This document shows positions 1,034-62,745 of a DNA stretch of 64,000 nucleotides, one piece after another. The notes beneath the pieces were generated by a model. It searched no databases. It saw only the letters and a program-made list of their open reading frames with translations, and was not told the DNA's origin. Within the stretch, counting starts at the first letter, position 1, and the number at the start of each line of letters is the position of its first letter. The DNA lies in contig DDQG01000007.1 in NCBI GenBank assembly GCA_002342585.1, forward strand, positions 11,120-75,119, read 5' to 3'. Made by a program: the position numbers and the translations under genes. Source of the DNA: Prevotellaceae bacterium UBA2448. Its GTDB lineage: Bacteria > Bacteroidota > Bacteroidia > Bacteroidales > Bacteroidaceae.

Positions 1034-1119
1034 GCGGCAAAGGTATAGCAATACAGACATATTACAAAGCAAAAATAATTTTTTAGCTTTATTTTTGATT
1101 ATTTTAAATTTAAAACATC

Positions 1120-1127
1120 TATTTTTG
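1120..1127 (+). promoter_or_regulatory. putative Bacteroidota -7 box (TAnnTTTG)
   Basis: TATTTTTG ends 17 nt before ATG 1144. A second copy lies at 1090-1097. The consensus is from Bacteroides promoter studies (-33 TTTG / -7 TAnnTTTG). Confidence 0.4.
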
Positions 1128-1143
1128 CAAAAAATATAACACA

Positions 1144-2348: not shown

Positions 2349-2449
2349 CAACAGTTTTGAAAGCCCTAACATTCAATTACCGATCAAAAAAATAGCATAA
2401 ATAAATGTATAGAAAATCAATTATTATCAAACACATAAACTTATTACAC

Positions 2450-4951: not shown

Positions 4952-4968
4952 TCAAACCAATTCATAAC

Positions 4969-5008
4969 TATGGGAATGTCACAACAATGGCATTCCCATA
5001 ATTTTCTT
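4969..5008 (+). terminator. rho-independent terminator hairpin
   Basis: tatgggaatg (4969-4978) pairs perfectly with cattcccata (4991-5000). It is followed by attttcttt. Confidence 0.6.
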
Positions 5009-5019
5009 TATATTCTATC

Positions 5020-7637: not shown

Positions 7638-7639
7638 TC

Positions 7640-9271: not shown

Positions 9272-10563
9272 ATACATTTGTGACATGGTTCCAGCACCTG
9301 TCGATATCCAGTATAATCAATACATACTGGTTTATCTTCTTTATCGAAATACCTCGATACTATCTGCTTGAAATCATAATTGTATCGTATAATGTACTTA
9401 CATATAAACGTCAGGACAAAAAACGGTTCTATGCACATTATAGACTGCTTAAAGAAAATCCCCTCATAACCATACTCGTACCTGGAAAGAATGAAGGAAA
9501 AAACATTTACAAACTTGTAAAATCCCTTGCAGAACAGACCTACAAAAATTATGAAATCATAATTGTTGATGACGGGTCTGACGATTATACTCCACTAATC
9601 TGTTCTGACTTGGAAAAGCATGGTTATATAGACCTGTACCTGCGCTGTGGAGTACGTGGTGGAAAAGCTTCGGCAGCCAATTATGGCGCATATCATGCAA
9701 AAGGAAAATACATTGTACATCTCGATGCCGATTCGTCACTTGACCGCGATGCAATTGAAAACATACTTCTGCCCTTCTATCTTGACCCTAAAATCAAAGC
9801 CGTAGGAGGCACAGTAAAAGTGCGTAACTACAAGGATTCTATTTGTGCTTCAATGCAGGCAATAGAATATCTTAAAACTATCATGATAGGACGTAAGGTA
9901 ACCGATACTCTAGGAATCCTGCATATCATCTCAGGAGCTTTTGGCGCATTTGAAGTAGAAACTCTGAAGAAAATCGGATACTGGGACATCGGTCCAGGAC
10001 TTGACGGAGACATCACTCAGAAGATACGCAAAGCCGGTTGGAAGGTGGCACACACCTCAGAAGCAGTGTGTCTTACAAATGTGCCTGTTAAATGGAAGGT
10101 GCTTTTCAAGCAAAGACTCAGATGGTCCAAGTCGCTCGTGCGATTCAGAATACGTAAACATCGTGACATCCTTTATCCAAACCGCAACTGGTCACTGAGC
10201 AACTTCGTTTCTAACATGGAGAGTATCATTTATGACTGCGTTTTCAACTATATATGGTTATTCTATTTCATAGGACTTATTGCAAACTTCAGCAACCATA
10301 TATTTGAAGTCATGCTACTCGACTTCCTAATCCGATTATGCCTTGCATGCGTTGCATTCGCTGTGATAATGACAGTAACCGAACGCAGGCGAGAAGAGCT
10401 ATTCCTTATACGATTCTTGCCGTTGACGTCACTCTACACAGGATATTTCATGCGCATCGTACGTTTACTTGCACATACGAAAGAGCTTTTCTTCTTCTCT
10501 TCGTACAAAGACCCATGGAATCCTGAAAAAACATCAAGATATGCACAACTTGAACGAGCATAA
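9247..10563 (+). CDS. membrane-embedded processive family-2 glycosyltransferase (PgaC/IcaA/NodC/BcsA-like polysaccharide synthase)
   Basis: 438 aa with TM helices at both ends. Motifs: ILVPGKNEG..., DDGSDD, HLDADS (DxD), LDGDIT (TED-like) and QRLRW (QxxRW). Confidence 0.8.
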   Translation: MSYIFDSLDTFVTWFQHLSISSIINTYWFIFFIEIPRYYLLEIIIVSYNVLTYKRQDKKRFYAHYRLLKENPLITILVPGKNEGKNIYKLVKSLAEQTYKNYEIIIVDDGSDDYTPLICSDLEKHGYIDLYLRCGVRGGKASAANYGAYHAKGKYIVHLDADSSLDRDAIENILLPFYLDPKIKAVGGTVKVRNYKDSICASMQAIEYLKTIMIGRKVTDTLGILHIISGAFGAFEVETLKKIGYWDIGPGLDGDITQKIRKAGWKVAHTSEAVCLTNVPVKWKVLFKQRLRWSKSLVRFRIRKHRDILYPNRNWSLSNFVSNMESIIYDCVFNYIWLFYFIGLIANFSNHIFEVMLLDFLIRLCLACVAFAVIMTVTERRREELFLIRFLPLTSLYTGYFMRIVRLLAHTKELFFFSSYKDPWNPEKTSRYAQLERA

Positions 10564-17857: not shown

Positions 17858-20047
17858 ATGGGAATCACCCAGAAAACTTGGAAGGAACAACTGGGGAACT
17901 CTGGTACCAGTTTGACAGTCATCATCTCTGCAGTATTATTATTGGAGTTGATGATGGGAGTCATGTTCTATTCCGCACAGAACTTTATACAAAAGACCAT
18001 GGAACGGATGGTAGGCGTTGAGATGAACTCCATCTATCTTCGTATCCGCAACAAACTATCCGATGTCGAAGTGACTATAGATAATATGTCATGGGTTGTC
18101 AGTGAAGGTCTGGATGAGCCAAGTTGGATGTTTGACATAACACGGAGAATGGTTAAGAACAATCCAATTGTCTGGGGTTGTGGCGTTGCTTTTGTACCGG
18201 ACTACTATCCGAAATGGGGTACGTTTTTTGAGCCATATGCTGTACGCAGGGATCAGGACTCCATAATGTCAATGCAAATAGGACATTACAAAATCGACCA
18301 TACAAAAAAAGAATATTTTCGCATACCTGTTTCACAAGGGAAATCACATTGGAGCGAGCCGTACATAGATCTTGTTGGCGCTAAATCAGTCATAACAACC
18401 TATAGTACTCCTATACACAACAGTTCAAACCATATTGTAGGAGTTGTATTTGCTGATATCACAACAGATTTGCTGAAGAACATTATGGAAGAGGAGAGAA
18501 TCTATAAATCTACTCAGCGTATTCTGGTAACAGGAAAATGCAACATATTGGCAGGTAACGATACTCCTTTATTCAGGGATATACTTGAACGACTGAAAAA
18601 AGACCACGATAAAACCGAATATTTTGCAATAAGGGATAAAGACGGCAGGAAACACCACGTGTTCTACACCGACGTTGGCGGAAAAACAGACTGGTTGCTC
18701 ATAAATATTCTGGATGACAGTGAGGTATTCGGCAGATTACGAATAATGCGTATGATGCTGATGCTTCCTGTGGTAATCGGTCTGCTCTTTGCATGGCTCA
18801 TCGTATGGCGTAGTTCAAACAATTTGAAACGTCTGAATGAGGTTAATGCCGAAAAAGAGCGCATAGACAGCGAGTTGCAAGTTGCAAGTCACATACAGCA
18901 AAGCATGTTGCCTCATAGAGAGTTGAACACTAAAAACTTTGAGCTAAAAGGGTTTTTGAAACCGGCCCGTGAGGTTGGCGGTGATTTATACGACTACTTC
19001 ATACGTGATGGAAAGTTGTATTTCTGTATTGGTGATGTCAGCGGGAAAGGGGCTCCTTCTGCAATACTTATGGCAGTCATCCATACATTGTTCCGTTCAG
19101 TATCAACACATGAGAGTAATCCAGCCCGCATTATGCAGTCCATCAATCTTTTCGCCTGTCAGGAAAACGACTCTAACATGTTTGTAACAATGTTTATCGG
19201 TGTGCTTGATTTGCCAACAGGACACATGCGTTATTGCGATGCTGGACATGACGCACCATTTATCATTTCCAATACATCAACACATGCTGACACGCCCGCA
19301 GATGGTCAGTGGTCAATGATTAATGTCAACCCCAATCTTCCCATTGGTGTGTTTGATGACACAAAATATAAAGTTCAGGAAACAACATTGCAACCATATA
19401 GTACCCTTTTCCTTTATACAGACGGATTAACAGAGGCAAAAAACGCGAACCGCAAGCAGTTTGGTTTGAAGCGAATAGAGGATGTACTTACTACCTGCAC
19501 CAATAATGAACCAAAGGAGATTATTGAGAAAATAGTTAAAACTATAGATAATTTTGTAAAGGATGCCAAACAGAGTGACGACTTAACTATGTTGGCTATC
19601 AAATATACTCCTGTACAGTTTGAAAGTACTTGGACCGATACATTAACCATAAAAAATGATGTGCATGAAGTAAAGCGTTTCAGCAACTTCATAAAAACGG
19701 CAACCGAAAACCTTAACATTGACACATCACTGGCTCGCCAGTTGCGTCTGGCAGTAGAGGAAGCTGTGGTCAACGTGATAGACTATGCATATCCGATAGA
19801 TACCAAAGGTAACATTACTATTAACATGATGTTTGACGGCAATAGTCTTCGTTTCCAGATTATTGACTCAGGTGCAGCATTTGATCCTACTACGATACAG
19901 AAATCTGACACAACGCTCTCTGCAGAAGACCGCCAGATTGGCGGACTTGGCATTTTGCTGGTTCGGGAACTTATGGACAGTATCAACTATGAACGAACAG
20001 ACGGAAAGAATATATTGACACTTATAAAGAATATAACAAATAATTAA
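17858..20047 (+). CDS. membrane sensor PP2C (SpoIIE/RsbU-type) phosphatase fused to an RsbW-like HATPase kinase domain
   Basis: 729 aa. Layout: TM, Cache-like periplasmic domain (...HWSEPYIDLVGAKSVITTYSTPI...GVVFADIT), TM, PP2C motifs (GGDLYDY, GDVSGKGAPSA, YTDGLTEA, DDLTMLAI), then an HATPase_c-like end (EEAVVNVIDYAY, GGLGILLVRELMD). Confidence 0.75.
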   Translation: MGITQKTWKEQLGNSGTSLTVIISAVLLLELMMGVMFYSAQNFIQKTMERMVGVEMNSIYLRIRNKLSDVEVTIDNMSWVVSEGLDEPSWMFDITRRMVKNNPIVWGCGVAFVPDYYPKWGTFFEPYAVRRDQDSIMSMQIGHYKIDHTKKEYFRIPVSQGKSHWSEPYIDLVGAKSVITTYSTPIHNSSNHIVGVVFADITTDLLKNIMEEERIYKSTQRILVTGKCNILAGNDTPLFRDILERLKKDHDKTEYFAIRDKDGRKHHVFYTDVGGKTDWLLINILDDSEVFGRLRIMRMMLMLPVVIGLLFAWLIVWRSSNNLKRLNEVNAEKERIDSELQVASHIQQSMLPHRELNTKNFELKGFLKPAREVGGDLYDYFIRDGKLYFCIGDVSGKGAPSAILMAVIHTLFRSVSTHESNPARIMQSINLFACQENDSNMFVTMFIGVLDLPTGHMRYCDAGHDAPFIISNTSTHADTPADGQWSMINVNPNLPIGVFDDTKYKVQETTLQPYSTLFLYTDGLTEAKNANRKQFGLKRIEDVLTTCTNNEPKEIIEKIVKTIDNFVKDAKQSDDLTMLAIKYTPVQFESTWTDTLTIKNDVHEVKRFSNFIKTATENLNIDTSLARQLRLAVEEAVVNVIDYAYPIDTKGNITINMMFDGNSLRFQIIDSGAAFDPTTIQKSDTTLSAEDRQIGGLGILLVRELMDSINYERTDGKNILTLIKNITNN

Positions 20048-20063
20048 TTAAATCATAATAGTC

Positions 20064-20366
20064 ATGAATGCAAAATTTGAAGAAATCGATGGCAAGTATA
20101 TTGCTACATTACAAGGAGAAATGGACACAGCTGCTGCTGTAGAGGCTGAGGAAATTTTGAAACCATTATATACCAGCAATGGCAAGGATGTTATTATCGA
20201 TTGCAAAGACTTAGAATATATCGCTTCCAGTGGATTACGTATTTTACTTGGCATATTGAAAGGTGCTAAATCTTCTGGTAGTAAAGTTACATTACGTGAC
20301 GTAAACGAAGATATCAAGACGGTATTTAAACTAACAGGATTCATTAGCATCTTCGAATTCGAATAA
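20064..20366 (+). CDS. STAS-domain anti-sigma-factor antagonist (RsbV/SpoIIAA-like)
   Basis: 100 aa. DLEYIASSGLRILL contains the conserved phosphorylatable Ser context. It lies 16 nt downstream of the phosphatase-kinase gene. Confidence 0.8.
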   Translation: MNAKFEEIDGKYIATLQGEMDTAAAVEAEEILKPLYTSNGKDVIIDCKDLEYIASSGLRILLGILKGAKSSGSKVTLRDVNEDIKTVFKLTGFISIFEFE

Positions 20367-20695
20367 GCACATAACAACATAAAAGAGTGGACAAGGAATT
20401 AAGAGAACATATTATAGCGATGTTTGCCCATTGCCATCGCCCTTGGTGCACTCATAGGTAAAAGTGCATACCAACTTGAAGTTATCAAGGATTTAACTCC
20501 AGAATCGCTTGAAGAAGGAAAAAAATAAGTATTCACAACTTAACAAGTATCGGTGCCGATGCCATGTGTAAAACTGATGACATGATACTCAACATCATGA
20601 CGCCGAAGGATAATCCTCCAAAATAATCGAGTGAACATCCATTACAAAATGTAATTTACATACCTTGAAAAAAACTTTTTAATAACTAATACGAT

Positions 20696-22051
20696 ATGAG
20701 TTCTTTTTCATCAAAGATCGGAGTTTTGTTAGCTGCAGCTGGTAGCGCAGTCGGATTGGGTAGTATCTGGAAATTCCCATATGTAGTAGGTGAGAACGGC
20801 GGTGGTGCGTTCATCATACTATATGTAGTTTGTTCATTGGTATTCGGTCTGCCTTTGGTAATGAACGATTTCCTGATAGGAAAGCTGTCAGGCAAGAGTG
20901 CCTACGGAGCCTTCCGCACCCTATCTGGTAATAACCGATGGCAATGGCTATCATGTTTAATGATTATTACAGTAACACTGCTCACTAGTTTCTACTTCGT
21001 AGTGACCGGATGGTGTTTCTACTACATGGTCGAAGCTGCAATGAACACTTTTGCAGGCATGGATGCAGAAGCACTGACAAATTTCTTCCATACTTTTGAA
21101 CACCAGCCTACAACGATGATAATCTATGCCTTCATTGCAATATTTCTGACAGCAGCAGTATTGTGGTTTGACGTCAATAAAGGTATAGAACGTTTGAGCA
21201 AGATACTGATGCCTATGTTATTCCTGATGTTGATAGCAATGGCTTTCCATATGGCATTCCTTGACGGCGGTACTAAGGGGTTGCGGTTTTTGTTTGAACC
21301 AGACTTATCGAAACTTACACCCAAGGTAATCCTTGAGGCTATAGGATTGAGTTTCTTTACATTGTCTATAGGATTAGGTATTCTTATCACTTATGGAGGC
21401 TATATGCCAAAGGAACAGGATGAGTCAATGCTTTCTCAAGAGAAAAATGTGGTAAGTACGTCGGTACAGATGATAGTTCTGGTTCTATTCGTATCGTTAT
21501 TAGCAGGCATGATCGTATTCCCTGCGGTGTTCGCATATGGGTTTAGCCCGGCAGAGGGACCTCAATTGACATTTGTCACGCTGCCCAATGTGTTCCAGCA
21601 TATGTTCAGCCCTACCCTGACCAGCGTCTCGTTTTTTGCACTGATGTGTGTGGCAGCCATCACCTCAACCATCTCACTGATGGAGGTAATGGTGGCATTT
21701 ATATGTGAAGCATCAGGGAAGACCAAGCAACCACTCAACAGACATCAAAGTGTGACTATTGTAGGCGTGATACAATTGATTACCAATTCACTATGCATTC
21801 TGTCAATGACAGGTAGTGTCAGTTGGCTTACGATAATGGACAAGAATTTGTTTGACGCAGCCAATAACCTGACCACCAACATTCTGATTCCTATTGGTGC
21901 AATGGGCACTTCCCTGTTCACGGGATGGTTCGTTCCCAAGGCAAGGTATCAAAGTTCACCACTGGTATCATTCATATATCTGATGATGCTGCGATGGATA
22001 GTTCCTATCGTCATTCTTATTATATTCCTTGAATCAATGAATGTATTTTAG
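20696..22051 (+). CDS. sodium-dependent transporter, neurotransmitter:sodium symporter (NSS/SNF) family
   Basis: 451 aa. The N-terminal GSAVGLGSIWKFPYVVGENGGGAFI signature is present, with about 11-12 TM segments. Confidence 0.85.
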   Translation: MSSFSSKIGVLLAAAGSAVGLGSIWKFPYVVGENGGGAFIILYVVCSLVFGLPLVMNDFLIGKLSGKSAYGAFRTLSGNNRWQWLSCLMIITVTLLTSFYFVVTGWCFYYMVEAAMNTFAGMDAEALTNFFHTFEHQPTTMIIYAFIAIFLTAAVLWFDVNKGIERLSKILMPMLFLMLIAMAFHMAFLDGGTKGLRFLFEPDLSKLTPKVILEAIGLSFFTLSIGLGILITYGGYMPKEQDESMLSQEKNVVSTSVQMIVLVLFVSLLAGMIVFPAVFAYGFSPAEGPQLTFVTLPNVFQHMFSPTLTSVSFFALMCVAAITSTISLMEVMVAFICEASGKTKQPLNRHQSVTIVGVIQLITNSLCILSMTGSVSWLTIMDKNLFDAANNLTTNILIPIGAMGTSLFTGWFVPKARYQSSPLVSFIYLMMLRWIVPIVILIIFLESMNVF

Positions 22052-22079: not shown

Positions 22080-25000
22080 ATGAAAAATACAGCACCATTA
22101 TCAAAAACACAGTATGGCATATATGTAGAGTGCGTCCAGCACTTAGGAGAATACTGTTATAATATAACCTATTTATATACGCTTGATGGCAGTTTGGATG
22201 AAGAAAAGCTTAAAGAAGCGATAGAGTCTGTTGTAGCCGCACATCCTACGTTGTTTACACGCATTGAACTGAACGAACAAGGCGAACCAATGCAAAGCAT
22301 CGATGACAGTGAGACGTTCTCTCTGGAGGTGGAGCACATCAACGATATAGAAGAGGAAAAGAAGGGGATGGTGAAAGCATTTGACATATTTAACGACAGG
22401 CTGTTCCGCATTCGTCTTCTGAAGGACAGCAAGTGTCTTTATCTCCTTGTTGATATTCACCATATCATCGGCGACGGCACGACAATGAAGGTAATACTCA
22501 ACGACATTGATGTTGCCTATAGTGGCAAGACTTTAGAGGCAGAGGGCAAGACCCAGGCAGACGTTGTACGTGAGGAAGCTGAAATGCGTCAGTCGCCAGC
22601 CTTTGAGGAAGACAAACAGTGGTATGCCCAGAACTTCGACTGCAGCGATACCTTTAGCCAGCTAATACCCGACTTGGAAGGAACGGAGTCGGAAATAGGC
22701 GCTTTTAAGCGAAAAATGAGTGTTAGGCTTGAGGATATTGATGCCTTCTGCAAGACACATGGCGTTTTCAAAAGCACTTTCTTTACCGGCGCATATAGCT
22801 ATCTGTTGACAAAATACAACAACGACCAAGAGGTACTGTTCAATACAGTATATAGCGGTCGTGCGGACAAACAACTGGCACGTACTGTTGCCATGTTGGT
22901 AAAGACAGTACCAGTATATGCAAAATTCAACGATGATACTACGGTGCTCGATTTTCTGAAGTCAGGAGAGGAGCAGATGAAGGGGTGTCGGGAACATGAA
23001 ACCTATTCATATGTCGATGTGGTAAGTGATCTGAAGTTGCAAGTTGATTCATTCTTCGCTTGGCACGGAACGGTATGGGACAATGTTGAGATAGGCGGCA
23101 GTCCGACAACTGCTGTCAAATTAGATCACACGACGTTGGAAGTGCCACTGTATGTGAATGCAGCCATCGTTGACGGGCATTGCTATGTGAATGCAGAGTA
23201 CAAGACCGATGTCTATTCCGAGCAGATGATAAGTCAATTTTTAGAGAGCTATGAAGCTGTGGTGGAGAGTTTTCTCAAGGAGGAATACCTGCGTGATATC
23301 AATATAGCTACAAAGTCACAGGTGGAACTGCTCGACAGTTTCAACCAGACTGATTTACCATACGATGACACTCAGACAATTGTTTCTCTGTTTTGTCAGC
23401 AGGCAAAGGCAACACCCGATAATATTGCTGTTGCCTTCAAAGATAAGAAATACACCTATAAGCAGGTGGACGAGATATCCGACAGGATTGCAGGATATAT
23501 AAGTTCAAGGTCCAAGGTTCAAGGTTCAAGTGAGGAGCCTGTTGTTTCTATCCTAATTCCTCGTAGCGAGTGGATGGCTATTGCTTCTTTGGGTGTTCTG
23601 AAGGCCGGATGTGCTTACCAGCCACTTGATCCAAGCTATCCGAAGGAGCGCCTGAACTTCATGATGCAGGATGCTTCGGCAAAGTTGCTTATAGCAGACG
23701 AGGAACTGCGAGGTGTTGTAGATGAATATCAGGGTGAGGTTCTTTTGACAAAGGATATCGAGAAACTTCCTGCCCTTACAGAAGAAGGCAAATCTCAATT
23801 GTCAATTGTCAATTGTCAATTAAAGCCCGACAGGCTTTTCATACTGCTCTACACCTCAGGTTCTACGGGTGTGCCAAAGGGTTGTCAGTTGGAGCATGGT
23901 AACCTCGTAAGTTTCTGCCATTGGTATCAGCGTTACTACGACCTCAAGCCTGAGCATAATGTGGCTGCATATGCCAGCTATGGTTTCGATGCCTGCATGA
24001 TGGATATGTATCCAGCACTGACTTGCGGCGCTTCGGTATATATTATTCCAGAGGAACTGCGTTTGGACCTTATCGCTCTGAACGAATACTTTGAGCAAAA
24101 CAACATCACGCATTCGTTCATGACGACTCAGGTGGGTTATCAGTTTGCAACCAGCATAGAGAATCATTCGTTAAAGCATCTCTCTGTTGGTGGTGAGAAA
24201 CTGGCTACTTTGACTCCGCCAACGGATTATCGGTTCCATAATGCCTACGGACCAACGGAGTGTACTATCTTCACTACGACATATCCTGTTGACAAGAAAC
24301 AGAAAGAGATACCTATCGGCAAGCCGACCGACAATACACATCTATACATTGTAGATTCACATGGTCATCGTATGCCTGTAGGTGCTGCAGGAGAATTATG
24401 GATTAGCGGTCCGCAGGTGGGTCGTGGTTATCTGAACCGTCCGGAAAAGACAGCAGAGGTGTATATCAAGAATCCATTCTCTGATGATGAAAAACATTCC
24501 AATGTTTATCGTTCCGGCGACATAGTGCGCTATCTACCTGACGGCAATATTCAGTTTGTGGGCCGTCGTGACGGACAGGTGAAAATTCGCGGTTTCCGCA
24601 TAGAACTGAAAGAGGTTGAGGCCGTCATTCGCGAGTTCCCTGGTATCAAGGATGCTACCGTGCAAGCTTTCGACGAAGAAGGTGGCGGAAAGTTTATTGC
24701 TGCATACATCGTTGGTGATCAGGAGATAGATATTGAGGCACTGAACAATTTCATCCTCGACCAAAAGCCACCATACATGGTGCCTGCCGTAACTATGCAG
24801 ATAGAGGCTATTCCGCTGAACCAGAATCAGAAGGTGAACAAGAAGGCTCTTCCGAAACCGGAGAAGAAGTCAGATGGAAGAAATCAGATGGAAGAGTCTG
24901 CGGCTCCTCTCAATGTATTGGAACAGGAAATTCATAGCATCATTGCAGAGATTATCAATACCGAGGACTTTGGTGTGACTACCATACTGGGGTATGTGGG

Positions 25001-28000
25001 TCTGACGTCTATTATGTCTATCAAGCTGGCGATACAAATAAATAAGCGTTTTGGCGTAATGCTGGATTCGAAGGCTTTGGCTAAGACAGGTAGTGTGCAG
25101 AGCATTGAGAACGAGATTCTGAAGGTAATGATGAGCGGAAGTGGAGCTGCCAATAAGGAAGTTGATGAGGTGAAGCATGCGGATATGAGCAACATCCCGC
25201 TGTCATACGCACAGATGGGTGTCTATGTGGATTGCATGAAGCAACCGACTTCTACGGTGTACAATATTCCCGCGGCAATACGTTTCCCAAAGGGAACTGA
25301 TGTGCAGTTGTTCTGCAAGTCGGTAGAAACTATTATTAAAGCTCACCCGCAGTTCCACGTGCATTTCGATAGCCAGGGAGGTGATATTATACAAATTATT
25401 GATGAAAACCAACCTGTTGTCATTGCACAAAGCAAGTTAGACGAAGCAGAGATAAAGAAATATATGGTTGAGTTCGTCAAGCCATTTAATCTGAGACAAG
25501 GACCTTTGTATCGCATGGAGATTGTCAGCACCGAGGAATATGTTTATCTATTAGCGGATGTGCATCACCTGATATTTGACGGTGCTTCGTTCAACCTGTT
25601 CTTGGACCAGTTGTGTGATTTGATGAATGGTAAAGATATAGAGCCTGAGAGCTTTACTTATGCTGACTTCGTGGCTGCACAGAAAGCAGCAGAGAATAGT
25701 GAGGAATATGCAGAAGCACGTGATTTCTTCCAGGAGCGACTGGGTAAGATTGAAGGTGTTACGGAAGTTCCTGCAGACCTTACCAATCCTCTGGAACAAG
25801 GTGTTGTGGAAACTTTGTATTGTCCACTAAACTTCGATGAAATAGACAGCTTCTGTCGTCAGCGCAATATCTCTCCAGCACATCATATCCTTGCTGCCAC
25901 TTTCTATGCGTTGTCACGATTCACTAACAATGAGCAGTTGTGCATAACCACAATCAGTAACGGACGTTCCGACTTGCGCATCAGCAATACTGTAGGTATG
26001 TTTGTCAACACGCTGGCATTAAGTGCTTTCATTGAGGAACAAAGCGTGATGGATTTCATTAATGAAACCAGCAAAAACTTCGATGAGACATTGCGCCACG
26101 AGAGTTATCCGTTTGCACGTGTTGCTGCCGACTATGATCTTTCAGCAGAGATAATGTTCGCCTACCAAATGGGTGTCTTGGAAGGCCATGAGTACAAGGG
26201 ACAACCAGTAACTATGGAATTGTTTGAGTCGGATGCGCCAAAATTCCGAATTGCTTTTTATATCCAGAATAATCCTGAAGGTAGGCCGAGCATCTGCTTG
26301 CAATACGACAACGGACGCTACAGTCAGGAACTCATGCAGAGCCTGGCACAGTCAATCAGTAATGCTGCAAATGCTTTCATCGCCAATCCTGATGCTAAAC
26401 TTAAGAGTGTTTCGCTGCTTGACGAAAAGCAGACAACTTTGCTTGACAGTTTCAACAATACTGATGTACCTTACGACAACACACAGACCGTCATTTCCCT
26501 GTTCCGCAAGCAGGTAGAGAGTGTGCCTGACAATATTGCTGTGATTTTTCACGATGTGCGACTGACCTATAAGCAAGTGGATGAGATGTCAGACCGCATT
26601 GCTGCATACCTTATTCAAAAAGGACTCAAGAGCGAAGATGTTGTTTCTATCATCATTCCTCGTAGCGAGTGGATGGTTATTGCTTCTTTAGGTGTATTGA
26701 AAGCAGGATGCGCTTATCAGCCACTCGATCCAAGTTATCCGAAGGAGCGCCTGAACTTCATGATGCAGGATGCTTCGGCAAAGTTACTTATTGCAGATGA
26801 GGAATTGCGAGGTGTTGTAGATGAATATCAGGGTGAGGTTCTTTTGACAAAGGATATCGAAAAACTTCCGGATCTTACAGAGGAAGGCAAATCTCAATTG
26901 TCAATTGTCAACTCTCAACTAAAGCCCGACAGTCTTTTCATCCTGCTATACACCTCTGGTTCTACTGGTGTGCCAAAGGGTTGTCAGTTGGAGCACGGTA
27001 ATCTTGTTTGTTTCTGCCATTGGTATCAGCGTTACTACGACCTCAAACCTGGCGACAAGGTTGCTGCATATGCCAGCTATGGTTTCGATGCCTGCATGAT
27101 GGATATGTATCCAGCCCTTACCACAGGTGCTACTGTAGTGATTGTTGGAGAGGACATTCGTCTGAACCTTCCTGACTTGAATAATTATTTCAATGAAGTG
27201 GGTGTGACTCATTCGTTTATGACAACACAGGTAGGATGCCAGTTTGCGATGAACTGCGATAATCATTCGCTGCGCCACCTCTCTGTCGGAGGCGAAAAGA
27301 TTCTGCCGCTTACCCCGCCAAAAGGTTATAAGCTTCATAATGGTTATGGACCTACCGAGTGTACTATCTTTACGACCACCTATCAACAGACGGAGTTTGA
27401 GCAGAATGCTCCTATCGGCAAACCGCTGGACAACTTGCAACTCTTTATTGTAGATAAGGACATGAACCGTCTTCCACTTGGAGCTGCCGGAGAAATGTTG
27501 GTGGCAGGCCCGCAGGTAAGCCGAGGCTACCTGAACCTGCCTGAGAAGACAGCTGAAACCTACATACAATGGAATGGGAAGCGCTGCTACCGCACAGGTG
27601 ATGTGGTGCGCTATCTGGCTGACGGAAATATCCAGTTTGTAGGACGTCGAGATGGTCAGGTGAAGATTCGTGGTTTCCGAATCGAGCTGAAAGAGGTGGA
27701 ATCTGTGATTCGCGAATTCCCAGGCATAAAGGATGCTACTGTTCAGGCATTTGACTATGAGAATGGCGGTAAGTTCATTGCAGCTTATATCGTTAGCGAT
27801 GAGCAGATAGACATAAAAGAATTGAACGATTTCATTGGTAAGCAGAAACCTTCATATATGATTCCTGCTGCCACGATGCAGATTGATAGCATTCCGCTGA
27901 ACCAGAACCAGAAAGTGAATAAGAAGGCGCTGCCTGCTCCTGTTGTTCAGGCTGTAGATCACAAGTATGTGGAGCCAGCAAACGATACAGAGAAACTCTT

Positions 28001-29414
28001 CTGCAGTATTTTCGGCGAAGTATTGTCTATGGACAAGATTGGTGCTACCGACAACTTCTTCGAACTTGGCGGAACATCACTCATGGTTACTAAAGTTATT
28101 ATCGAAGCCGACAAGGCTGGTCACCATGTAGCTTATGGTGATGTCTTCACACATGCCACACCACGTTTGCTGGCACAGCTTTTAACAGGTGATACTCCTG
28201 TAGAGAACGATGATGACGAAGTAACTAATTTCGATTACTCAGGCATCAATGCCATCTTGCAACAAAACAATGCGGAATCATTCCGTAAGGGTGAACTGCA
28301 AAAGTTAGGCAATGTGCTTCTTACTGGTGCTACCGGTTATCTGGGTATCCACGTTTTGCGCGAACTCATCGATTCTGATGCTCCTACAATCACATGTCTT
28401 GTGCGTGCTCAAGATCAGCCTGCAGCAGAAAGGCGATTGAAGAATTTACTGTTCTACTATTTCGAAACATCATTCAAGGAACTTTTCGGCACACGTCTCT
28501 TCGTCATCAATGGCGATGTGACACAAGATATGACAAAGGTGGTTGGTGATTCCATCGTCAACATCAACACCGTCTTCAACTGTGCTGCCAATGTAAAACA
28601 CTTCTCTAAGACTTCAGACATTGAAGATGTAAATATTGGCGGGGCACAACGTTGTGTGGAGTTCTGTCTGCAGACTGGTGCCAAACTAGTACATATATCT
28701 ACTACTTCCGTTGGTGAGATGTGGGTAATACGCAATAATGGCGAAGAGATACCTAAACTTGACGAGCGCAAGTTCTGGTTCGGACAGTTCCTGGATAACC
28801 GTTATATCCACTCTAAGTTCCTTGCTGAACGAATAGTTCTCGATGCTGTTGCCCATCACGGTCTTAATGGTAAGGTGATGCGTGTGGGCAATCTGGCACC
28901 ACGAAGCTATGATGGTGAGTTCCAGGTCAACTTCAACAGCAACAGTTATATGGGACGACTCAAGGTTTTCTCTACACTTGGTTGTTGTCCTTACGACAGT
29001 TATGACGAAAGCATTGAGATGTCGCCTATCAACGAGACGGCAAAAGCTGTGGTTCTCCTTGCATCTACACCAAAGGAGTGTACAGTCTTCCAGCCGTTCA
29101 ACAACCACACGGAACTCCTTGGCGACATTCTTCAACTTTTGAGCAAAGTGGAAAGAAATATAAACTTTGTAGAAAATGAAGAATTCGAGAAGGCTCTTGC
29201 TGAAGCCGGTCAAGACCAAGAGAAGGCAAAATTGCTCTCTGCAATGATGGCTTATCAGGATATGGCTCACGGACAGAAGGCTGTCTTCATAAATCGTGAC
29301 AACCGATACACCTGCTCTGTTCTGCATCGTCTCGGATTCCATTGGAGCGACACAGCTTGGGATTATGTAGAGCGAATGCTTACAGCAATCAGCGGCTTTG
29401 GATACTTCGAATAA
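22080..29414 (+). CDS. bimodular non-ribosomal peptide synthetase, C-A-T-C-A-T-R (terminal thioester reductase)
   Basis: 2444 aa. C1 has HHIIGDG (nt 22458-22478). A1 has LYTSGSTGVPKG, YGPTE and QVKIRGFRIEL. T1 has GLTSI (about nt 25000). C2 has HHLIFDG (about nt 25563). A2 repeats the A1 motifs. T2 has LGGTSL (about nt 28070). The R domain has TGATGYLG (about nt 28325) and YIHSK. Confidence 0.92.
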   Translation: MKNTAPLSKTQYGIYVECVQHLGEYCYNITYLYTLDGSLDEEKLKEAIESVVAAHPTLFTRIELNEQGEPMQSIDDSETFSLEVEHINDIEEEKKGMVKAFDIFNDRLFRIRLLKDSKCLYLLVDIHHIIGDGTTMKVILNDIDVAYSGKTLEAEGKTQADVVREEAEMRQSPAFEEDKQWYAQNFDCSDTFSQLIPDLEGTESEIGAFKRKMSVRLEDIDAFCKTHGVFKSTFFTGAYSYLLTKYNNDQEVLFNTVYSGRADKQLARTVAMLVKTVPVYAKFNDDTTVLDFLKSGEEQMKGCREHETYSYVDVVSDLKLQVDSFFAWHGTVWDNVEIGGSPTTAVKLDHTTLEVPLYVNAAIVDGHCYVNAEYKTDVYSEQMISQFLESYEAVVESFLKEEYLRDINIATKSQVELLDSFNQTDLPYDDTQTIVSLFCQQAKATPDNIAVAFKDKKYTYKQVDEISDRIAGYISSRSKVQGSSEEPVVSILIPRSEWMAIASLGVLKAGCAYQPLDPSYPKERLNFMMQDASAKLLIADEELRGVVDEYQGEVLLTKDIEKLPALTEEGKSQLSIVNCQLKPDRLFILLYTSGSTGVPKGCQLEHGNLVSFCHWYQRYYDLKPEHNVAAYASYGFDACMMDMYPALTCGASVYIIPEELRLDLIALNEYFEQNNITHSFMTTQVGYQFATSIENHSLKHLSVGGEKLATLTPPTDYRFHNAYGPTECTIFTTTYPVDKKQKEIPIGKPTDNTHLYIVDSHGHRMPVGAAGELWISGPQVGRGYLNRPEKTAEVYIKNPFSDDEKHSNVYRSGDIVRYLPDGNIQFVGRRDGQVKIRGFRIELKEVEAVIREFPGIKDATVQAFDEEGGGKFIAAYIVGDQEIDIEALNNFILDQKPPYMVPAVTMQIEAIPLNQNQKVNKKALPKPEKKSDGRNQMEESAAPLNVLEQEIHSIIAEIINTEDFGVTTILGYVGLTSIMSIKLAIQINKRFGVMLDSKALAKTGSVQSIENEILKVMMSGSGAANKEVDEVKHADMSNIPLSYAQMGVYVDCMKQPTSTVYNIPAAIRFPKGTDVQLFCKSVETIIKAHPQFHVHFDSQGGDIIQIIDENQPVVIAQSKLDEAEIKKYMVEFVKPFNLRQGPLYRMEIVSTEEYVYLLADVHHLIFDGASFNLFLDQLCDLMNGKDIEPESFTYADFVAAQKAAENSEEYAEARDFFQERLGKIEGVTEVPADLTNPLEQGVVETLYCPLNFDEIDSFCRQRNISPAHHILAATFYALSRFTNNEQLCITTISNGRSDLRISNTVGMFVNTLALSAFIEEQSVMDFINETSKNFDETLRHESYPFARVAADYDLSAEIMFAYQMGVLEGHEYKGQPVTMELFESDAPKFRIAFYIQNNPEGRPSICLQYDNGRYSQELMQSLAQSISNAANAFIANPDAKLKSVSLLDEKQTTLLDSFNNTDVPYDNTQTVISLFRKQVESVPDNIAVIFHDVRLTYKQVDEMSDRIAAYLIQKGLKSEDVVSIIIPRSEWMVIASLGVLKAGCAYQPLDPSYPKERLNFMMQDASAKLLIADEELRGVVDEYQGEVLLTKDIEKLPDLTEEGKSQLSIVNSQLKPDSLFILLYTSGSTGVPKGCQLEHGNLVCFCHWYQRYYDLKPGDKVAAYASYGFDACMMDMYPALTTGATVVIVGEDIRLNLPDLNNYFNEVGVTHSFMTTQVGCQFAMNCDNHSLRHLSVGGEKILPLTPPKGYKLHNGYGPTECTIFTTTYQQTEFEQNAPIGKPLDNLQLFIVDKDMNRLPLGAAGEMLVAGPQVSRGYLNLPEKTAETYIQWNGKRCYRTGDVVRYLADGNIQFVGRRDGQVKIRGFRIELKEVESVIREFPGIKDATVQAFDYENGGKFIAAYIVSDEQIDIKELNDFIGKQKPSYMIPAATMQIDSIPLNQNQKVNKKALPAPVVQAVDHKYVEPANDTEKLFCSIFGEVLSMDKIGATDNFFELGGTSLMVTKVIIEADKAGHHVAYGDVFTHATPRLLAQLLTGDTPVENDDDEVTNFDYSGINAILQQNNAESFRKGELQKLGNVLLTGATGYLGIHVLRELIDSDAPTITCLVRAQDQPAAERRLKNLLFYYFETSFKELFGTRLFVINGDVTQDMTKVVGDSIVNINTVFNCAANVKHFSKTSDIEDVNIGGAQRCVEFCLQTGAKLVHISTTSVGEMWVIRNNGEEIPKLDERKFWFGQFLDNRYIHSKFLAERIVLDAVAHHGLNGKVMRVGNLAPRSYDGEFQVNFNSNSYMGRLKVFSTLGCCPYDSYDESIEMSPINETAKAVVLLASTPKECTVFQPFNNHTELLGDILQLLSKVERNINFVENEEFEKALAEAGQDQEKAKLLSAMMAYQDMAHGQKAVFINRDNRYTCSVLHRLGFHWSDTAWDYVERMLTAISGFGYFE
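23503..23530 (+). repeat. heptanucleotide tandem repeat inside the NRPS CDS
   Basis: gttcaag|gtccaag|gttcaag|gttcaag encodes part of ...SSRSKVQGSS.... It is absent from the equivalent position in module 2. Confidence 0.8.
23795..23822 (+). repeat. heptanucleotide tandem repeat (TCAATTG x3 plus TCAATTA) inside the NRPS CDS
   Basis: tcaattg|tcaattg|tcaattg|tcaatta encodes SQLSIVNCQLK in A-domain 1. Confidence 0.85.
26894..26921 (+). repeat. degenerate copy of the same heptanucleotide array in NRPS module 2
   Basis: tcaattg|tcaattg|tcaactc|tcaacta encodes SQLSIVNSQLK. It sits exactly 3099 nt (1033 codons) downstream of the module-1 array. Confidence 0.8.
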
Positions 29415-29428
29415 AGCTAACTAAAAAG

Positions 29429-29458
29429 TCAAGGGTCGGGAGATTTCCCGACCCTTGA
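29429..29458. terminator. bidirectional terminator hairpin between the convergent NRPS and LuxR-type regulator genes
   Basis: The 13-bp perfect stem tcaagggtcggga / tcccgacccttga has a 4-nt loop. An A-run lies on the left (a T-run for the minus-strand transcript) and ttat on the right. Confidence 0.7.
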
Positions 29459-29479: not shown

Positions 29480-30127
29480 TTAAATATAGTATTCTACGAA
29501 GTTCACTACCCCATTCTTTATAGCCCATTTCGTGGCTTCATAGGTAGTGTTCACATTTAGTTTTCTGAAAATATTCTTCTTGTGGGTAATAATAGTATGA
29601 TTGCTTGAGCAGCGCTCGTTAGCTATCTCCTTAACTGTTTTGCCTGCGGCAATGAGTTTCAGGATTTCTGTCTCGGTATGAGTCAGTTTATCCTGTTTAT
29701 CGGCTTCTGCCTGCGAAGTAAGCAGGATATTGGTTATCTGATGTCCCAAATAGCGTTCGCCTCTAACGGCACATTGCACAGCTGTCTGTATTTCCTGTGC
29801 GCTACTGTCTTTCAGCACCATACTGAACGAAGGTTCTACGCTGAGTCGCCTAATAAGACCTTCTGTCAGGTTGTCGGAAAACATAATCCAATGCACATGA
29901 CTGAAACGCGAACTCATATTCAGGAGTTCGTCCGCATTGTGCATATCGAAAAGTGTCAAGTCAATGATTACAACTGCTTGCTCTTCTTTTTGCAACCAAG
30001 ACATCAAATCCTTGTGAGTTCGCACATCGGCAATCTCATCATATTGAGATTTGTCGAGAGCCATTCTCACCACATAATGCATACCCAAACGGGTTATGTC
30101 CTGATTGTCAGCCAGTAATATATTCAT
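29480..30127 (-). CDS. LuxR/NarL-family response regulator (receiver plus HTH)
   Basis: ORF 29480-30292 trimmed to MNILLADNQDITRLG... (ATG rc at 30127-30125), because the upstream 55 codons are tRNA genes. The C-terminal LTHTETEILKLIAAGKTVKEIANERCSSNHTIITHKKNIFRKLNV is a LuxR HTH. Confidence 0.8.
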   Translation of the reverse strand: MNILLADNQDITRLGMHYVVRMALDKSQYDEIADVRTHKDLMSWLQKEEQAVVIIDLTLFDMHNADELLNMSSRFSHVHWIMFSDNLTEGLIRRLSVEPSFSMVLKDSSAQEIQTAVQCAVRGERYLGHQITNILLTSQAEADKQDKLTHTETEILKLIAAGKTVKEIANERCSSNHTIITHKKNIFRKLNVNTTYEATKWAIKNGVVNFVEYYI

Positions 30128-30140
30128 TTCCAACTCCAAT

Positions 30141-30216
30141 TGGTCGGGATGAGGCGACTCGAACGCCCGACCCCTACGTCCCGAACGTAGTGCGCTACCA
30201 ACTGCGCTACATCCCG
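30141..30216 (-). tRNA. tRNA-Pro (anticodon CGG), CCA encoded
   Basis: Hand-folded cloverleaf, 76 nt: cgggatg ta gcgc agttggta gcgc a ctacg ttCGGga cgtag gggtc gggcg ttcgagt cgcct catcccg a cca. Confidence 0.85.
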
Positions 30217-30233
30217 TAAATAAAAGAAAAAAG

Positions 30234-30307
30234 TCGGGATGACCAGACTCGAACTGGCGACCACACGCCCCCCAGACGTGTACGCTAACCAACTGCGCTA
30301 CATCCCG
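30234..30307 (-). tRNA. tRNA-Pro (anticodon GGG)
   Basis: Hand-folded cloverleaf, 74 nt: cgggatg ta gcgc agttggtta gcgt a cacgt ctGGGgg gcgtg tggtc gccag ttcgagt ctggt catcccg a. No CCA is encoded. Confidence 0.8.
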
Positions 30308-33724: not shown

Positions 33725-34750
33725 ATGGCAAACAACATTGATTGGTCAAACCTTGGTTTTGGCTACAACAAGACAGATTACAACGTTCGCTGTTATTATC
33801 GTGACGGCAAATGGGGTGAAATTGAAGTATCGTCGGAAGAGACTATTCCGATGCACATGGCAGCAACTTGTCTTCACTATGGACAGGAAGCATTCGAGGG
33901 TCTGAAGGCTTACCGTTGTCCTGACGGCAAAGTACGAGTATTCCGCAGCGATGAGAATGCAGCCCGTCTGCAGTCAACCTGTCGCGGCATCCTTATGCCA
34001 GAACTGCCAACCGAGAAATTCAACGAAATGGTAGATAAGGTAGTTCGTCTGAACGAGCGATTCATTCCACCATATGAGACAGGAGCAACACTCTACATCC
34101 GTCCGCTGCTTATCGGAACCAGCGCTCAGGTAGGTGTTCACCCAGCTTCTGAATATCTGTTCCTCATCTTTGTTACTCCAGTTGGTCCATACTTCAAGGG
34201 CGGATTCAGCTGCAATCCATATGTAATCATCCGCGAATACGATCGTAGTGCTCCTCTCGGCACAGGTATCTATAAGGTAGGTGGAAACTATGCTGCCAGC
34301 CTTCGTGCCAACAAGATGGCTCATGACCTCGGATATGCATGCGAGTTCTACCTCGACGCAAAGGAGAAGAAATACATGGACGAGTGTGGTGCTGCTAACT
34401 TCTTCGGAATCAAGAACAACACTTACGTAACTCCTAAATCTACTTCTATCCTGCCTTCTATCACCAACAAATCGCTGATGCAGTTGGCAGAAGACCTGGG
34501 TCTGAAGGTTGAGCGCCGCCAGATTCCAGAAGAAGAACTGGAAACATTCGAAGAGGCTGGTGCTTGTGGTACAGCAGCAGTTATCTCACCAATCAGCAAG
34601 ATTGACGACTTGGAACTGAAGAAGAGTTTCGTATTCTCAAAGGACGGAAAACCAGGTCCTATTTCTACAAAACTCTACAACCTGCTGCGCGGCATCCAGT
34701 ACGGCACAGAGCCAGACAAGCACGGATGGACTCGAGTTGTGATTGAATAA
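33725..34750 (+). CDS. ilvE: branched-chain-amino-acid aminotransferase
   Basis: 341 aa. ...LHYGQEAFEGLKAYR... and ...GACGTAAVISPI... are typical of fold-type IV BCAT enzymes. Confidence 0.85.
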   Translation: MANNIDWSNLGFGYNKTDYNVRCYYRDGKWGEIEVSSEETIPMHMAATCLHYGQEAFEGLKAYRCPDGKVRVFRSDENAARLQSTCRGILMPELPTEKFNEMVDKVVRLNERFIPPYETGATLYIRPLLIGTSAQVGVHPASEYLFLIFVTPVGPYFKGGFSCNPYVIIREYDRSAPLGTGIYKVGGNYAASLRANKMAHDLGYACEFYLDAKEKKYMDECGAANFFGIKNNTYVTPKSTSILPSITNKSLMQLAEDLGLKVERRQIPEEELETFEEAGACGTAAVISPISKIDDLELKKSFVFSKDGKPGPISTKLYNLLRGIQYGTEPDKHGWTRVVIE

Positions 34751-61026: not shown

Positions 61027-61042
61027 ATATTCATTTTCTTTT

Positions 61043-62707: not shown

Positions 62708-62745
62708 ATTGTTTTTCTTTTTAAATGAACGTTATGATGAACCCA

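Follow-up and report, generated by a model that had tools for sequence, protein, structure and literature searches.

A reductase-terminated dimodular nonribosomal peptide synthetase of rumen Bacteroidales, encoded beside a conserved partner-switching pair and probably making a short peptide aldehyde

A Prevotella-like bacterium of the sheep rumen encodes a real and intact dimodular nonribosomal peptide synthetase (NRPS) with the domain order C-A-T-C-A-T-R. It lies in the 64,000-nucleotide stretch of DNA that was analysed here (the window), and its probable product, judging from its domains, is a short hydrophobic peptide released as the aldehyde. The model that we prefer, to which we give a probability of about 0.55, is the synthesis of an N-acyl dipeptide aldehyde from two hydrophobic residues, in which the N-terminal condensation domain (C1) would add the cap, the terminal reductase (R) would carry out release, a neighboring transporter would import precursors and a partner switch would control production. 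In the rumen, where Prevotella and its Bacteroidales relatives are dominant, these bacteria account for much of the breakdown of protein and peptides. A maker of peptide aldehydes with hundreds of relatives among species-representative genomes would be a plausible source of a natural protease inhibitor or signal, which would matter for feed efficiency and for the use of nitrogen. Expression of Prevotella NRPS clusters has been reported to be higher in less efficient steers (PMC8241843).

Domain Organization and Conservation

Modular (type I) NRPSs are characterized by the core motifs HHxxxDG, A3 TSGSTGxPKG, the A10 lysine and the carrier serine, and the synthetase of the window (Table 1) has its domains in module order together with these core motifs. 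Its 7.3-kb frame is uninterrupted and all of the catalytic motifs are intact, the best Pfam E-value is 4e-153, and the NCBIfam model TIGR01733 matches with 772 bits against a cut-off of 317. The layout proposed in an initial annotation of this DNA, with two adenylation (A) domains, two carrier serine motifs, two intact HHxxxDG motifs and a terminal reductase of the SDR type, is therefore borne out by Pfam and by the motifs. The N-terminus of the protein (MKNTAPLSKTQ) is kept in orthologues and the GLTSI motif of the first carrier is almost invariant across the family. The HH..D residues of C1 (H127, H128 and D132) and the HH..DG of C2 are invariant in all 65 full-length orthologues and the Tyr and Lys of the R domain are kept in 64 of the 65, and thus the catalytic residues of C1, C2, and R are under purifying selection. 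Asp235 and Lys517 of the adenylation domains, the two carrier serines and the NAD(P)H-binding motif of the reductase are intact as well and are likewise conserved among the 65.

Table 1. Features of the NRPS locus in the window, in order of position; aa, residues of the NRPS.
Feature	Coordinates	Strand	Basis
Sensor phosphatase-kinase fusion, 729 aa: Cache/PDC sensor, PP2C (SpoIIE), RsbW-like HATPase_c_2	17858..20047	+	Pfam SpoIIE 3e-48 and HATPase_c_2 1.5e-25 in one protein
STAS anti-sigma-antagonist-type protein, 100 aa, ASSG phospho-serine motif	20064..20366	+	Pfam STAS 6e-15
SDH_alpha/UPF0597-family gene remnant (pseudogene fragments)	20387..20614	+	tblastn to 431-aa protein of orthologous locus L016
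NSS/SNF-family Na+-coupled transporter, MhsT-like	20696..22051	+	Pfam SNF 4e-44
NRPS gene, C-A-T-C-A-T-R, 2444 aa	22080..29414	+	single ORF, ATG start, stop codon counted in coordinates (ORF list); Pfam domains
C1, N-terminal condensation domain	22083..23282 (aa 2-401)	+	Pfam Condensation 1e-56; HHIIGDG aa 127-133
A1 adenylation domain, DAMFSGAIFK	23397..24833 (aa 440-918)	+	Pfam AMP-binding 9e-73 (aa 440-785) and AMP-binding_C; family alignment
T1 carrier domain, Ser977	24927..25112 (aa 950-1011)	+	Pfam PP-binding; GLTSI at aa 974
C2 condensation domain	25191..26441 (aa 1038-1454)	+	Pfam Condensation; HHLIFDG at aa 1162
A2 adenylation domain, DAMFSGGIFK	26502..27914 (aa 1475-1945)	+	Pfam AMP-binding (aa 1475-1818) and AMP-binding_C; family alignment
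T2 carrier domain, Ser2000	27999..28184 (aa 1974-2035)	+	Pfam PP-binding 1e-14; GGTSL at aa 1997
R, terminal thioester reductase, Y2242/K2246	28320..29411 (aa 2081-2444)	+	Pfam NAD_binding_4 1e-32 (aa 2081-2323); TGATGYLG at aa 2082, YIHSK at aa 2242
G+C-rich hairpin, 13 bp	29429..29458	.	terminator scan: 13 pairs, 8 G-C, called on - strand

Adenylation Domains and Their Substrates

The Stachelhaus specificity codes of A1 and A2 (Table 1) were derived anew by aligning 66 full-length members of the family with MAFFT and anchoring at FDxx, GGE, YGPTE, and the A10 Lys. They are identical to the codes that the initial annotation had read by hand, and the one-residue indel before GGE which it had allowed is also seen in a HMMER alignment to LgrA. 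All residues of the two pockets (DAMFSG[A/G]IFK) are hydrophobic or small apart from the retained Asp235 and Lys517, which mark the substrates as alpha-amino acids, and this supports the view that both modules have near-identical, non-canonical hydrophobic codes. Among solved structures A2 comes nearest to the valine-activating first adenylation domain of LgrA, whose pocket, DGLYIGGIMK, has five positions identical to the NRPS code and three conservative ones. A 120-aa block of A2 is 89–95% identical to A1 at the nucleotide level. To our knowledge neither code matches that of any substrate, and a literature search for the four commonest codes of the family, within which the A-domain codes vary naturally, found no paper. 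In the preferred model A1 and A2 would load two similar hydrophobic amino acids and C2 would join them.

Reductive Release and Related Pathways

As in other reductase-terminated NRPSs, a C-terminal SDR domain with TGxxGxxG and YxxxK follows the last carrier. The T-R didomain (aa 1966-2444) aligns end to end with 6VTJ, the PCP-R didomain of Mru_0351 (313 bits, 4e-92), and likewise with the second-best structure, the PCP-R of AusA (4F6L). Mru_0351, an NRPS of Methanobrevibacter ruminantium M1 (PDB 6VTJ/6VTZ), is thus the closest solved structure and shares the rumen habitat, although it is archaeal and the comparison is one of the terminal didomain only; it has no known product (PMC8024701). Over most of the protein (aa 403-2432) the top match is the NCBIfam model of AusA (NF047350), whose 1535.9 bits fall below the curated equivalog cut-off of 2500, so that the NRPS is not an AusA orthologue. 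AusA (PznA), the aureusimine synthetase of Staphylococcus aureus, has the same dimodular A-T-C-A-T-R core with an SDR thioester reductase at its end, by which it releases a dipeptide aldehyde. The NRPS of the window differs from it in having a further C domain at the N-terminus, whose active site is intact, and in its specificity codes, phylum and gene neighborhood. Among characterized enzymes, this aldehyde-forming synthetase is the nearest in sequence to both the R domain and the A-T-C-A-T-R core, and the R domain would free the dipeptide from T2 by hydride transfer as a C-terminal aldehyde. In the literature searched, no characterized product was found for any member of the NRPS family.

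Several pathways of similar architecture help to place this prediction. The dipeptide-aldehyde NRPS family of gut commensals described by Guo et al. in Cell in 2017 reportedly comprises 47 clusters and includes Bacteroides members, and the rup pathway of R. bromii, studied by Schneider and Balskus, is said to have a C-A-T-C-A-T-R-like synthetase and an N-acylated product, ruminopeptin. Compared by description only, both are like the present NRPS in architecture and gut habitat, whereas they belong to human-gut bacteria, those named in the papers cited below being Firmicutes, and the family studied here to Bacteroidales, mainly of ruminants. The products of short reductase-terminated NRPSs of gut anaerobes have been identified as dipeptide aldehydes (PMC12327764, PMC8210680). 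Within the phylum Bacteroidota, the falcitidin NRPS of Chitinophaga is likewise encoded by a single gene, with a starter C domain at its beginning and a reductase (NAD_binding_4) at its end; the peptide aldehydes that it makes carry an N-acyl group (isovaleryl or phenylacetyl) and act as inhibitors of cysteine proteases, and the pathway, which has no conserved tailoring genes, yields both aldehydes and alcohols (bioRxiv 10.1101/2021.10.30.466580). Here the likeness is one of architecture: the falcitidin NRPS has five modules (18.5 kb) where this one has two, belongs to aerobic Chitinophagia of soil, and has no partner-switch genes reported, unlike the locus described here.

The mixed products of falcitidin biosynthesis point to another possible end of the pathway, a four-electron reduction in which the thioester passes through the aldehyde to the primary alcohol and an N-acyl dipeptidyl alcohol is formed, as in release of the myxalamid/myxochelin type. 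The two kinds of R domain share their motifs and the extent of reduction (two- or four-electron) is unreadable from the R-domain sequence (PMC8024701). We nevertheless regard this outcome as improbable, given that the R domain is far closer to that of AusA (158 bits, 4e-45) than to the alcohol-forming MxaA-R (51 bits, 7e-13).

The N-Terminal Condensation Domain

We infer that C1 may N-acylate the first residue. Standing at the N-terminus, it has no upstream carrier in cis, and its motif is intact where the initial annotation had named a catalytically dead C1 as a reason to give up its reading; the invariance of HH..D among the full-length orthologues argues for retained catalysis. C1 and C2 are only 15–35% identical. 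Among PDB structures C1 is best matched by the LCL domain of TycC (84 bits, 1e-22) and by BacC (77 bits), and weakly by the acyl-accepting C domain of PvdL (48 bits, 1e-11) and the starter C domain of SrfAA (46 bits, 4e-11). C2 is best matched by LCL-type TycC (4e-29) and LgrA and, unlike C1, has no match to the SrfAA starter domain or to the acyl-accepting domain of PvdL. The same NCBIfam models (AusA internal C, MxcG, EntF) match both domains and thus do not tell them apart, and C-domain folds are too alike for their subtypes to be told from structure. With ordinary LCL domains as the best PDB matches of C1, its starter function is putative. Of the N-acyl dipeptide aldehyde predicted initially, then, the dipeptide aldehyde is plausible from the terminal R domain and the AusA-like core, while the N-acyl part is tentative, the matches of C1 to acyl-accepting domains being weak. 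A conserved carrier, ACP or FAAL gene was not found near the NRPS among 80 loci, nor was an acyl-activating enzyme or ACP linked to it at any orthologous locus examined; in the preferred model C1 would most likely acylate the amino end of the first residue, with primary metabolism supplying the acyl-CoA or acyl-ACP.

The choice matters for the final product, because an N-acyl dipeptide aldehyde could not cyclize to a pyrazinone. If C1 were structural, regulatory or inactive in initiation, the outcome would be as with AusA, that is, a free-amine dipeptide aldehyde which goes on spontaneously to a dihydropyrazinone or pyrazinone. The AusA-like core and the LCL-type matches of C1 would fit such an outcome, and so would a subgroup of orthologues (loci L012, L013, L016, and L051) that have lost residues ~1–165 of C1, including HHxxxDG, with the rest intact; from the persistence of this subgroup, the assembly line evidently can last without C1 catalysis. 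On the other side stand the complete C1 of the window and its invariant active site in the 65 full-length orthologues, and we consider free-amine release rather unlikely. An N-acyl tail is known to stabilize some of the gut dipeptide aldehydes (PMC8210680).

Distribution of the Family

Relatives of the NRPS are encoded on 427 stretches of species-representative genomes, and there are more than 100 protein clusters at 70–100% identity. The best 80 of the 427 come nearly all from rumen Prevotella, Prevotellaceae, Bacteroidales or Muribaculaceae (rumen or gut). These numbers, together with a survey that counted 934 NRPS clusters in rumen 'Bacteroidaceae' (PMC8241843), contradict the earlier remark that NRPSs are uncommon in Bacteroidales. 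An orthologue is carried by at least one cultured strain, Prevotella sp. tc2-28, which with the variation of the codes and the subgroup lacking part of C1 makes the family open to experiment.

A Conserved Partner-Switching Pair and Other Neighbors

The NRPS had been called stand-alone, which is wrong, since it sits in a conserved locus with transport genes and a partner-switching pair (the pair at 55–61 of 71 informative loci). The Cache-PP2C-kinase fusion lies upstream of the NRPS on the same strand at 55 of the 71 informative orthologous loci, and the STAS protein (TIGR00377, 71 bits vs. a cut-off of 53) is present at 61 and absent from 10. Their synteny with the NRPS holds while other neighbors vary, an outer-membrane barrel, MATE pump or PPTase often being found as well. 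A PP2C phosphatase and a GHKL serine kinase are thus encoded together with a STAS protein that carries a phosphorylatable Ser, and these are the elements of partner switching. The fusion has weak NCBIfam matches to SiaA and RsbW, and its nearest PDB structures are Rv1364c (3KE6) and SiaA (6K4E). A PP2C and an RsbW-like kinase in one polypeptide acting on STAS are also known from Rv1364c of M. tuberculosis, SypE/SypA of V. fischeri, and SiaABC of P. aeruginosa; in the last two the switch controls a biosynthetic or biofilm function. The fusion at the NRPS locus differs in its order, Cache, PP2C, and then kinase, and in that STAS is a separate gene. SypE/SypA is the subject of PMC10120452, and in the literature searched no published link between partner switching and an NRPS in Bacteroidota was found; the linkage is possibly new.

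In the preferred model, which here draws on synteny, the fusion and the STAS protein would probably act as a partner switch, responsive to a ligand, by which production is turned on or off. A further and more tentative proposal is that rumen Bacteroidales share a conserved and dedicated Cache/PP2C-kinase/STAS circuit whose output is the NRPS. The extracytoplasmic Cache domain would sense a ligand from feed, the host or neighboring cells and set the balance of phosphatase and kinase on STAS, which would gate whether an N-capped hydrophobic peptide aldehyde is made or exported. Were this true, regulation of a nonribosomal peptide pathway by a partner switch would be new, and the product might act widely in the rumen to modulate proteolysis, or serve as a signal. 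Neither the window nor the set of conserved neighbors yielded a sigma factor or another conserved candidate for the output partner. The conserved pair offers a testable handle on induction of the cluster.

The transporter gene ends 28 nt before the NRPS begins. Its product scores above the cut-offs of both Pfam SNF and NCBIfam Na_transp and aligns over its full length with MhsT (PDB 4US3, 1e-77, aa 4-451 to 14-453). An SNF gene is present at 12 of the 71 informative loci and lies directly upstream of the NRPS in closer relatives such as L004, L008, L013, and L016, and this Na+ symporter is a probable importer of the hydrophobic amino-acid precursors.

Activation of the Synthetase and Remaining Features of the Locus

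The initial annotation had seen no PPTase, MbtH or type II thioesterase gene, and this holds for the window: a PPTase was found neither by the family HMM nor by tblastn (nothing below E = 0.5) in the 64 kb, an MbtH signature is likewise absent from it, and no thioesterase, ACP or FAAL occurs among its other ORFs of at least 150 aa, a length limit that a small stand-alone ACP would escape. In the preferred model activation would need a PPTase encoded elsewhere in the genome. The same absence could mean that the NRPS is silent or non-functional here, a relic that is not primed or not expressed, the more so as a PPTase adjoins the NRPS at 14 orthologous loci and a neighboring SDH_alpha gene has decayed, of which some orthologous loci keep an unbroken copy in the same place (the L001 homologue is Pfam-assigned). 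What remains of it in the window matches the L016 protein at aa 73-106 (85% identity, E 6e-13) and 403-431 (93%, E 2e-11), and weakly at aa 2-29 (E 0.065). We think it very unlikely that the pathway is a relic, as the long NRPS frame is unbroken with every catalytic motif in place, most orthologous loci also have no linked PPTase, and a 100% identical protein occurs on sheep-rumen metagenome contigs from three separate sample records. Transcription of Prevotella NRPS clusters in rumen samples (PMC8241843) also speaks against silence.

Other genes of the window were considered as cluster members and rejected. A LuxR-type response regulator (29480-30292, - strand) and a GCAxxG protein occur beside the NRPS only on contigs identical to the window; a class IV aminotransferase (33725-34750), a candidate tailoring enzyme that would convert the aldehyde to an amine, is not conserved beside the NRPS, and neither are the upstream GH127 and GH106 genes. 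A sigma-70 promoter scan gave 37 sites against 28.6 ± 6.5 expected, which is uninformative, the promoters of the tool excluding Bacteroidota. The hairpin of Table 1 begins 15 nt past the NRPS stop codon and is likely a terminator common to the NRPS and the convergent LuxR-type gene.

Architecture and distribution of the NRPS family

The nonribosomal peptide synthetase (NRPS) is encoded in a single uninterrupted frame, and its Pfam domains together with the motifs HHIIGDG (aa 127), GLTSI (974), HHLIFDG (1162), GGTSL (1997), TGATGYLG (2082) and YIHSK (2242) establish, far beyond chance, that the C-A-T-C-A-T-R architecture is real. The domain order in the initial annotation is thus borne out, and every motif quoted there lies at its place in the protein.

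Features of the window, with conservation among the 71 orthologous loci that extend 3 kb or more upstream
Feature	Position	Strand	Remarks
Run of five same-strand genes	2405-10563	+	
Cache/PDC sensor, PP2C (SpoIIE) phosphatase and RsbW-like HATPase_c_2 kinase fusion	17858-20047	+	729 aa; same strand as NRPS; 55/71 loci
STAS protein	20064-20366	+	100 aa; same strand as NRPS; 61/71 loci
SDH_alpha/UPF0597-family fragments	20387-20614	+	
MhsT-like SNF transporter	20696-22051	+	ends 28 nt before NRPS start; MhsT match 1e-77, full length
NRPS ORF	22080-29414	+	2444 aa
Condensation domains	aa 2-401, 1038-1454		Pfam
AMP-binding and AMP-binding_C pairs	aa 440-918, 1475-1945		Pfam
PP-binding domains	aa 950-1011, 1974-2035		Pfam
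C-terminal NAD_binding_4	aa 2081-2323		Pfam
A1 block similar to A2	23619-23978		aa 514-633
A2 block similar to A1	26718-27077		aa 1547-1666
T2-R didomain	27969-29411		
13-bp G+C-rich hairpin	29429-29458		3' of NRPS stop; likely terminator common to NRPS and convergent LuxR/GerE-type gene
LuxR/GerE-type response-regulator gene	29480-30292	-	
Four consecutive hydrolase genes	58377-63921	-	last runs into window end

A search with the protein returned 2195 matches at E < 1e-50; more than 100 protein clusters share its Pfam set and are 70–100% identical to it from end to end, and larger relatives of approximately 3000–3500 and 4100 aa are also present. Relatives are encoded in 427 stretches of species-representative genomes, the best 80 of which belong nearly all to Prevotella, Prevotellaceae, Bacteroidales or Muribaculaceae MAGs from cattle, sheep, goat, yak, buffalo and reindeer, with one cultured isolate, Prevotella sp. 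tc2-28. A 100% identical protein in the same gene order is found on sheep-rumen metagenome contigs (JGI 3300012007; ENA assemblies labelled PRJNA214227). A rumen survey of 8,160 genomes counted 5,346 NRPS clusters, of which 934 belong to GTDB “Bacteroidaceae” (PMC8241843), and together with the 427 stretches this overturns, for the rumen habitat, the earlier statement that NRPSs are uncommon in Bacteroidales. One goat-reticulum Prevotella MAG (RGIG3308) carries two different family members on separate contigs (loci L022 and L061), with best-segment identities to the window protein of 67% and 56% and differing A1 codes, so that genomes can hold paralogous copies.

The enzyme type is already known from gut dipeptide-aldehyde NRPSs and ruminopeptin (PMC8210680, PMC12327764), falcitidin (bioRxiv 10.1101/2021.10.30.466580) and AusA, surveys have already tallied NRPS clusters in rumen Bacteroidota, and the chemistry would not surprise a specialist. 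What is new is the breadth of this family, its conserved pairing with a partner switch, and natural C1-deletion variants. The family occurs widely, may matter to agriculture and can be approached experimentally; our literature search found no paper assigning it a product.

Adenylation specificity

To read the ten Stachelhaus positions (235–517, GrsA numbering), 66 full-length family members were aligned with MAFFT, with FDxx, GGE, YGPTE and the A10 lysine as anchors. The codes, DAMFSGAIFK for A1 and DAMFSGGIFK for A2, are identical to those previously derived by hand, and the one-residue gap then allowed before GGE recurs as the same insertion when HMMER aligns the protein with LgrA. Asp235 and Lys517 are retained in both pockets, the remaining positions being hydrophobic or small. 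The nearest structure is the valine-activating first adenylation domain of LgrA; its pocket, DGLYIGGIMK in the printed alignment, has five identical and three conservative positions. Position 299 is Ser here versus Ile in LgrA, a change that would enlarge the pocket, and A1 and A2 are predicted to take a hydrophobic residue that is probably bulkier than valine.

No code occurs more often in the family than DAMFSGGIFK (A2 in 20/66, A1 in 10/66). A1 is highly variable, with 31 different codes among the 66 members, and A2 reads DAQSRGCVAK in 17 and DAEGTGVDDK, with acidic pocket residues, in two; the family thus diversifies its peptide. Between A1 and A2, a 120-aa block is 90–100% identical in amino acids and 89–95% in nucleotides versus 60–70% identity in the rest of the A domains, and has the look of a recent gene-conversion event between the modules of this one gene.

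Predicted reductive release

The top NCBIfam model is the AusA (aureusimine) equivalog, which matches the A-T-C-A-T-R part (aa 403-2432) at 1536 bits, under its cut-off of 2500 bits, so that the NRPS, although alike in this core, is AusA-like and not an AusA orthologue. Over its whole length, the T-R didomain can be aligned with the Mru_0351 PCP-R structure 6VTJ (4e-92, 313 bits) and with the AusA PCP-R (4e-45); its similarity to the alcohol-forming MxaA-R is much lower (7e-13). The degree of reduction by R domains is not readable from sequence (PMC8024701); these similarities lean toward aldehyde release, and a four-electron reduction to the alcohol appears distinctly unlikely. The full-length likeness of T2-R to an archaeal didomain, that of the rumen methanogen Methanobrevibacter ruminantium, whose Mru_0351 NRPS has no known product (PMC8024701), hints that rumen bacteria and archaea have exchanged portions of their NRPSs.

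The N-terminal condensation domain

C1 is complete, only 15–35% identical to C2, and its His-His-Asp is invariant in 65/65 full-length orthologues, which argues for catalysis. Its best PDB matches are ordinary LCL domains (TycC, 84 bits; BacC, 77). Lower scores are obtained with PvdL's acyl-accepting C domain (48 bits) and with the starter C domain of surfactin (46 bits), the latter not matched by C2. As a rule, an N-terminal C domain without an upstream module N-acylates the first residue. No loading module is linked here, and in the same phylum the falcitidin NRPS, a single enzyme running from starter C to terminal reductase, makes N-acyl peptide aldehydes (bioRxiv 10.1101/2021.10.30.466580); these three points together suggest that C1 N-acylates the first residue. 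An un-acylated pyrazinone route, with which the AusA-like core would agree, is fairly unlikely beside the invariant C1 motif.

C1 residues ~1-165, including HHxxxDG, are cleanly lost in-frame in loci L012, L013, L016 and L051, some of them close orthologues, and in protein clusters P0027, P0032, P0035 and P0036 (2248-2282 aa). These natural variants, which lack C1 catalysis, still begin with the original MKNT/MENT region and retain all other parts of the assembly line, and their products would be expected to be un-capped.

A conserved partner-switch pair and transport genes

The NRPS was initially called stand-alone, a description contradicted by comparison of 80 orthologous loci, since the phosphatase-kinase fusion and the STAS gene are conserved upstream. 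The STAS protein scores above the NCBIfam anti-sigma-antagonist cut-off, and its phospho-serine motif, ASSG, is present. Structurally, the fusion comes nearest to SiaA and Rv1364c, a fused phosphatase-kinase partner-switch protein of M. tuberculosis. A functional analogue that acts on a biosynthetic locus is the Vibrio fischeri pair SypE/SypA (PMC10120452); our literature search found no published description of such a pair with an NRPS.

Transport genes are also linked. Between STAS and NRPS most loci have a ~449-aa gene, whose product is an outer-membrane barrel of the Alginate_exp kind in 41 loci and an SNF transporter in 12, the window among them, and a MATE pump follows the NRPS in ~21. 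The window transporter resembles MhsT, a transporter of hydrophobic amino acids, which fits precursor import and the hydrophobic codes. An Sfp-type PPTase lies near the NRPS in 14 loci.

We propose, with a probability of roughly 0.55 for the mechanism as a whole, that the enzyme would join two similar hydrophobic residues and release them by reduction as an aldehyde, while C1 would cap the amine with an acyl group drawn from primary metabolism. The MhsT-like carrier would feed the pathway, the Cache-PP2C-kinase/STAS pair would switch it in response to an external ligand, and a PPTase encoded elsewhere would prime the carriers. That the gene is silent seems very improbable: the enzyme is intact and conserved, and Prevotella NRPS clusters are transcribed in rumen samples, where they count among the clusters with higher expression in steers of lower feed efficiency (PMC8241843).

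Other features of the window

The apparent 330-nt gap between the STAS and transporter genes contains in-order SDH_alpha/UPF0597 fragments (aa 73-106 and 403-431 of 431, 85–93% identical; aa 2-29 weakly, E 0.065). Loci L016 and L001 have an intact copy in the same place, and the remnant is a pseudogene with many deletions. The LuxR/GerE-type gene, whose receiver domain scores 24.9 bits, under the Pfam cut-off of 30.2, is not conserved beside the NRPS in other genomes. Genes outside the immediate cluster show no conservation among the 80 loci: GH127, GH106, the LuxR-type regulator, a GCAxxG protein, AXE1, an aminotransferase and methyltransferases are confined to contigs that are identical to the window, and the LuxR-type regulator and the GCAxxG protein were therefore rejected as cluster members. 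The remaining genes are housekeeping (primase, RecG, TIM, NDK) or encode plant-cell-wall enzymes (GH127, GH106, RGL11, AXE1), a content considered typical of rumen Prevotella.

The five-gene run includes three large ORFs (848, 463 and 409 aa) without Pfam match and ends with two genes, one for a TackOD1 (Thaumarchaeal output domain 1) protein and, with its start overlapping the former, one for a family-2 glycosyltransferase; the run may be an uncharacterised signalling/polysaccharide operon. The hydrolase genes (Amidohydro_3, Abhydrolase_3, Amidohydro_3, carboxylesterase) have a G+C of 0.48-0.51 versus ~0.44 elsewhere in the window.
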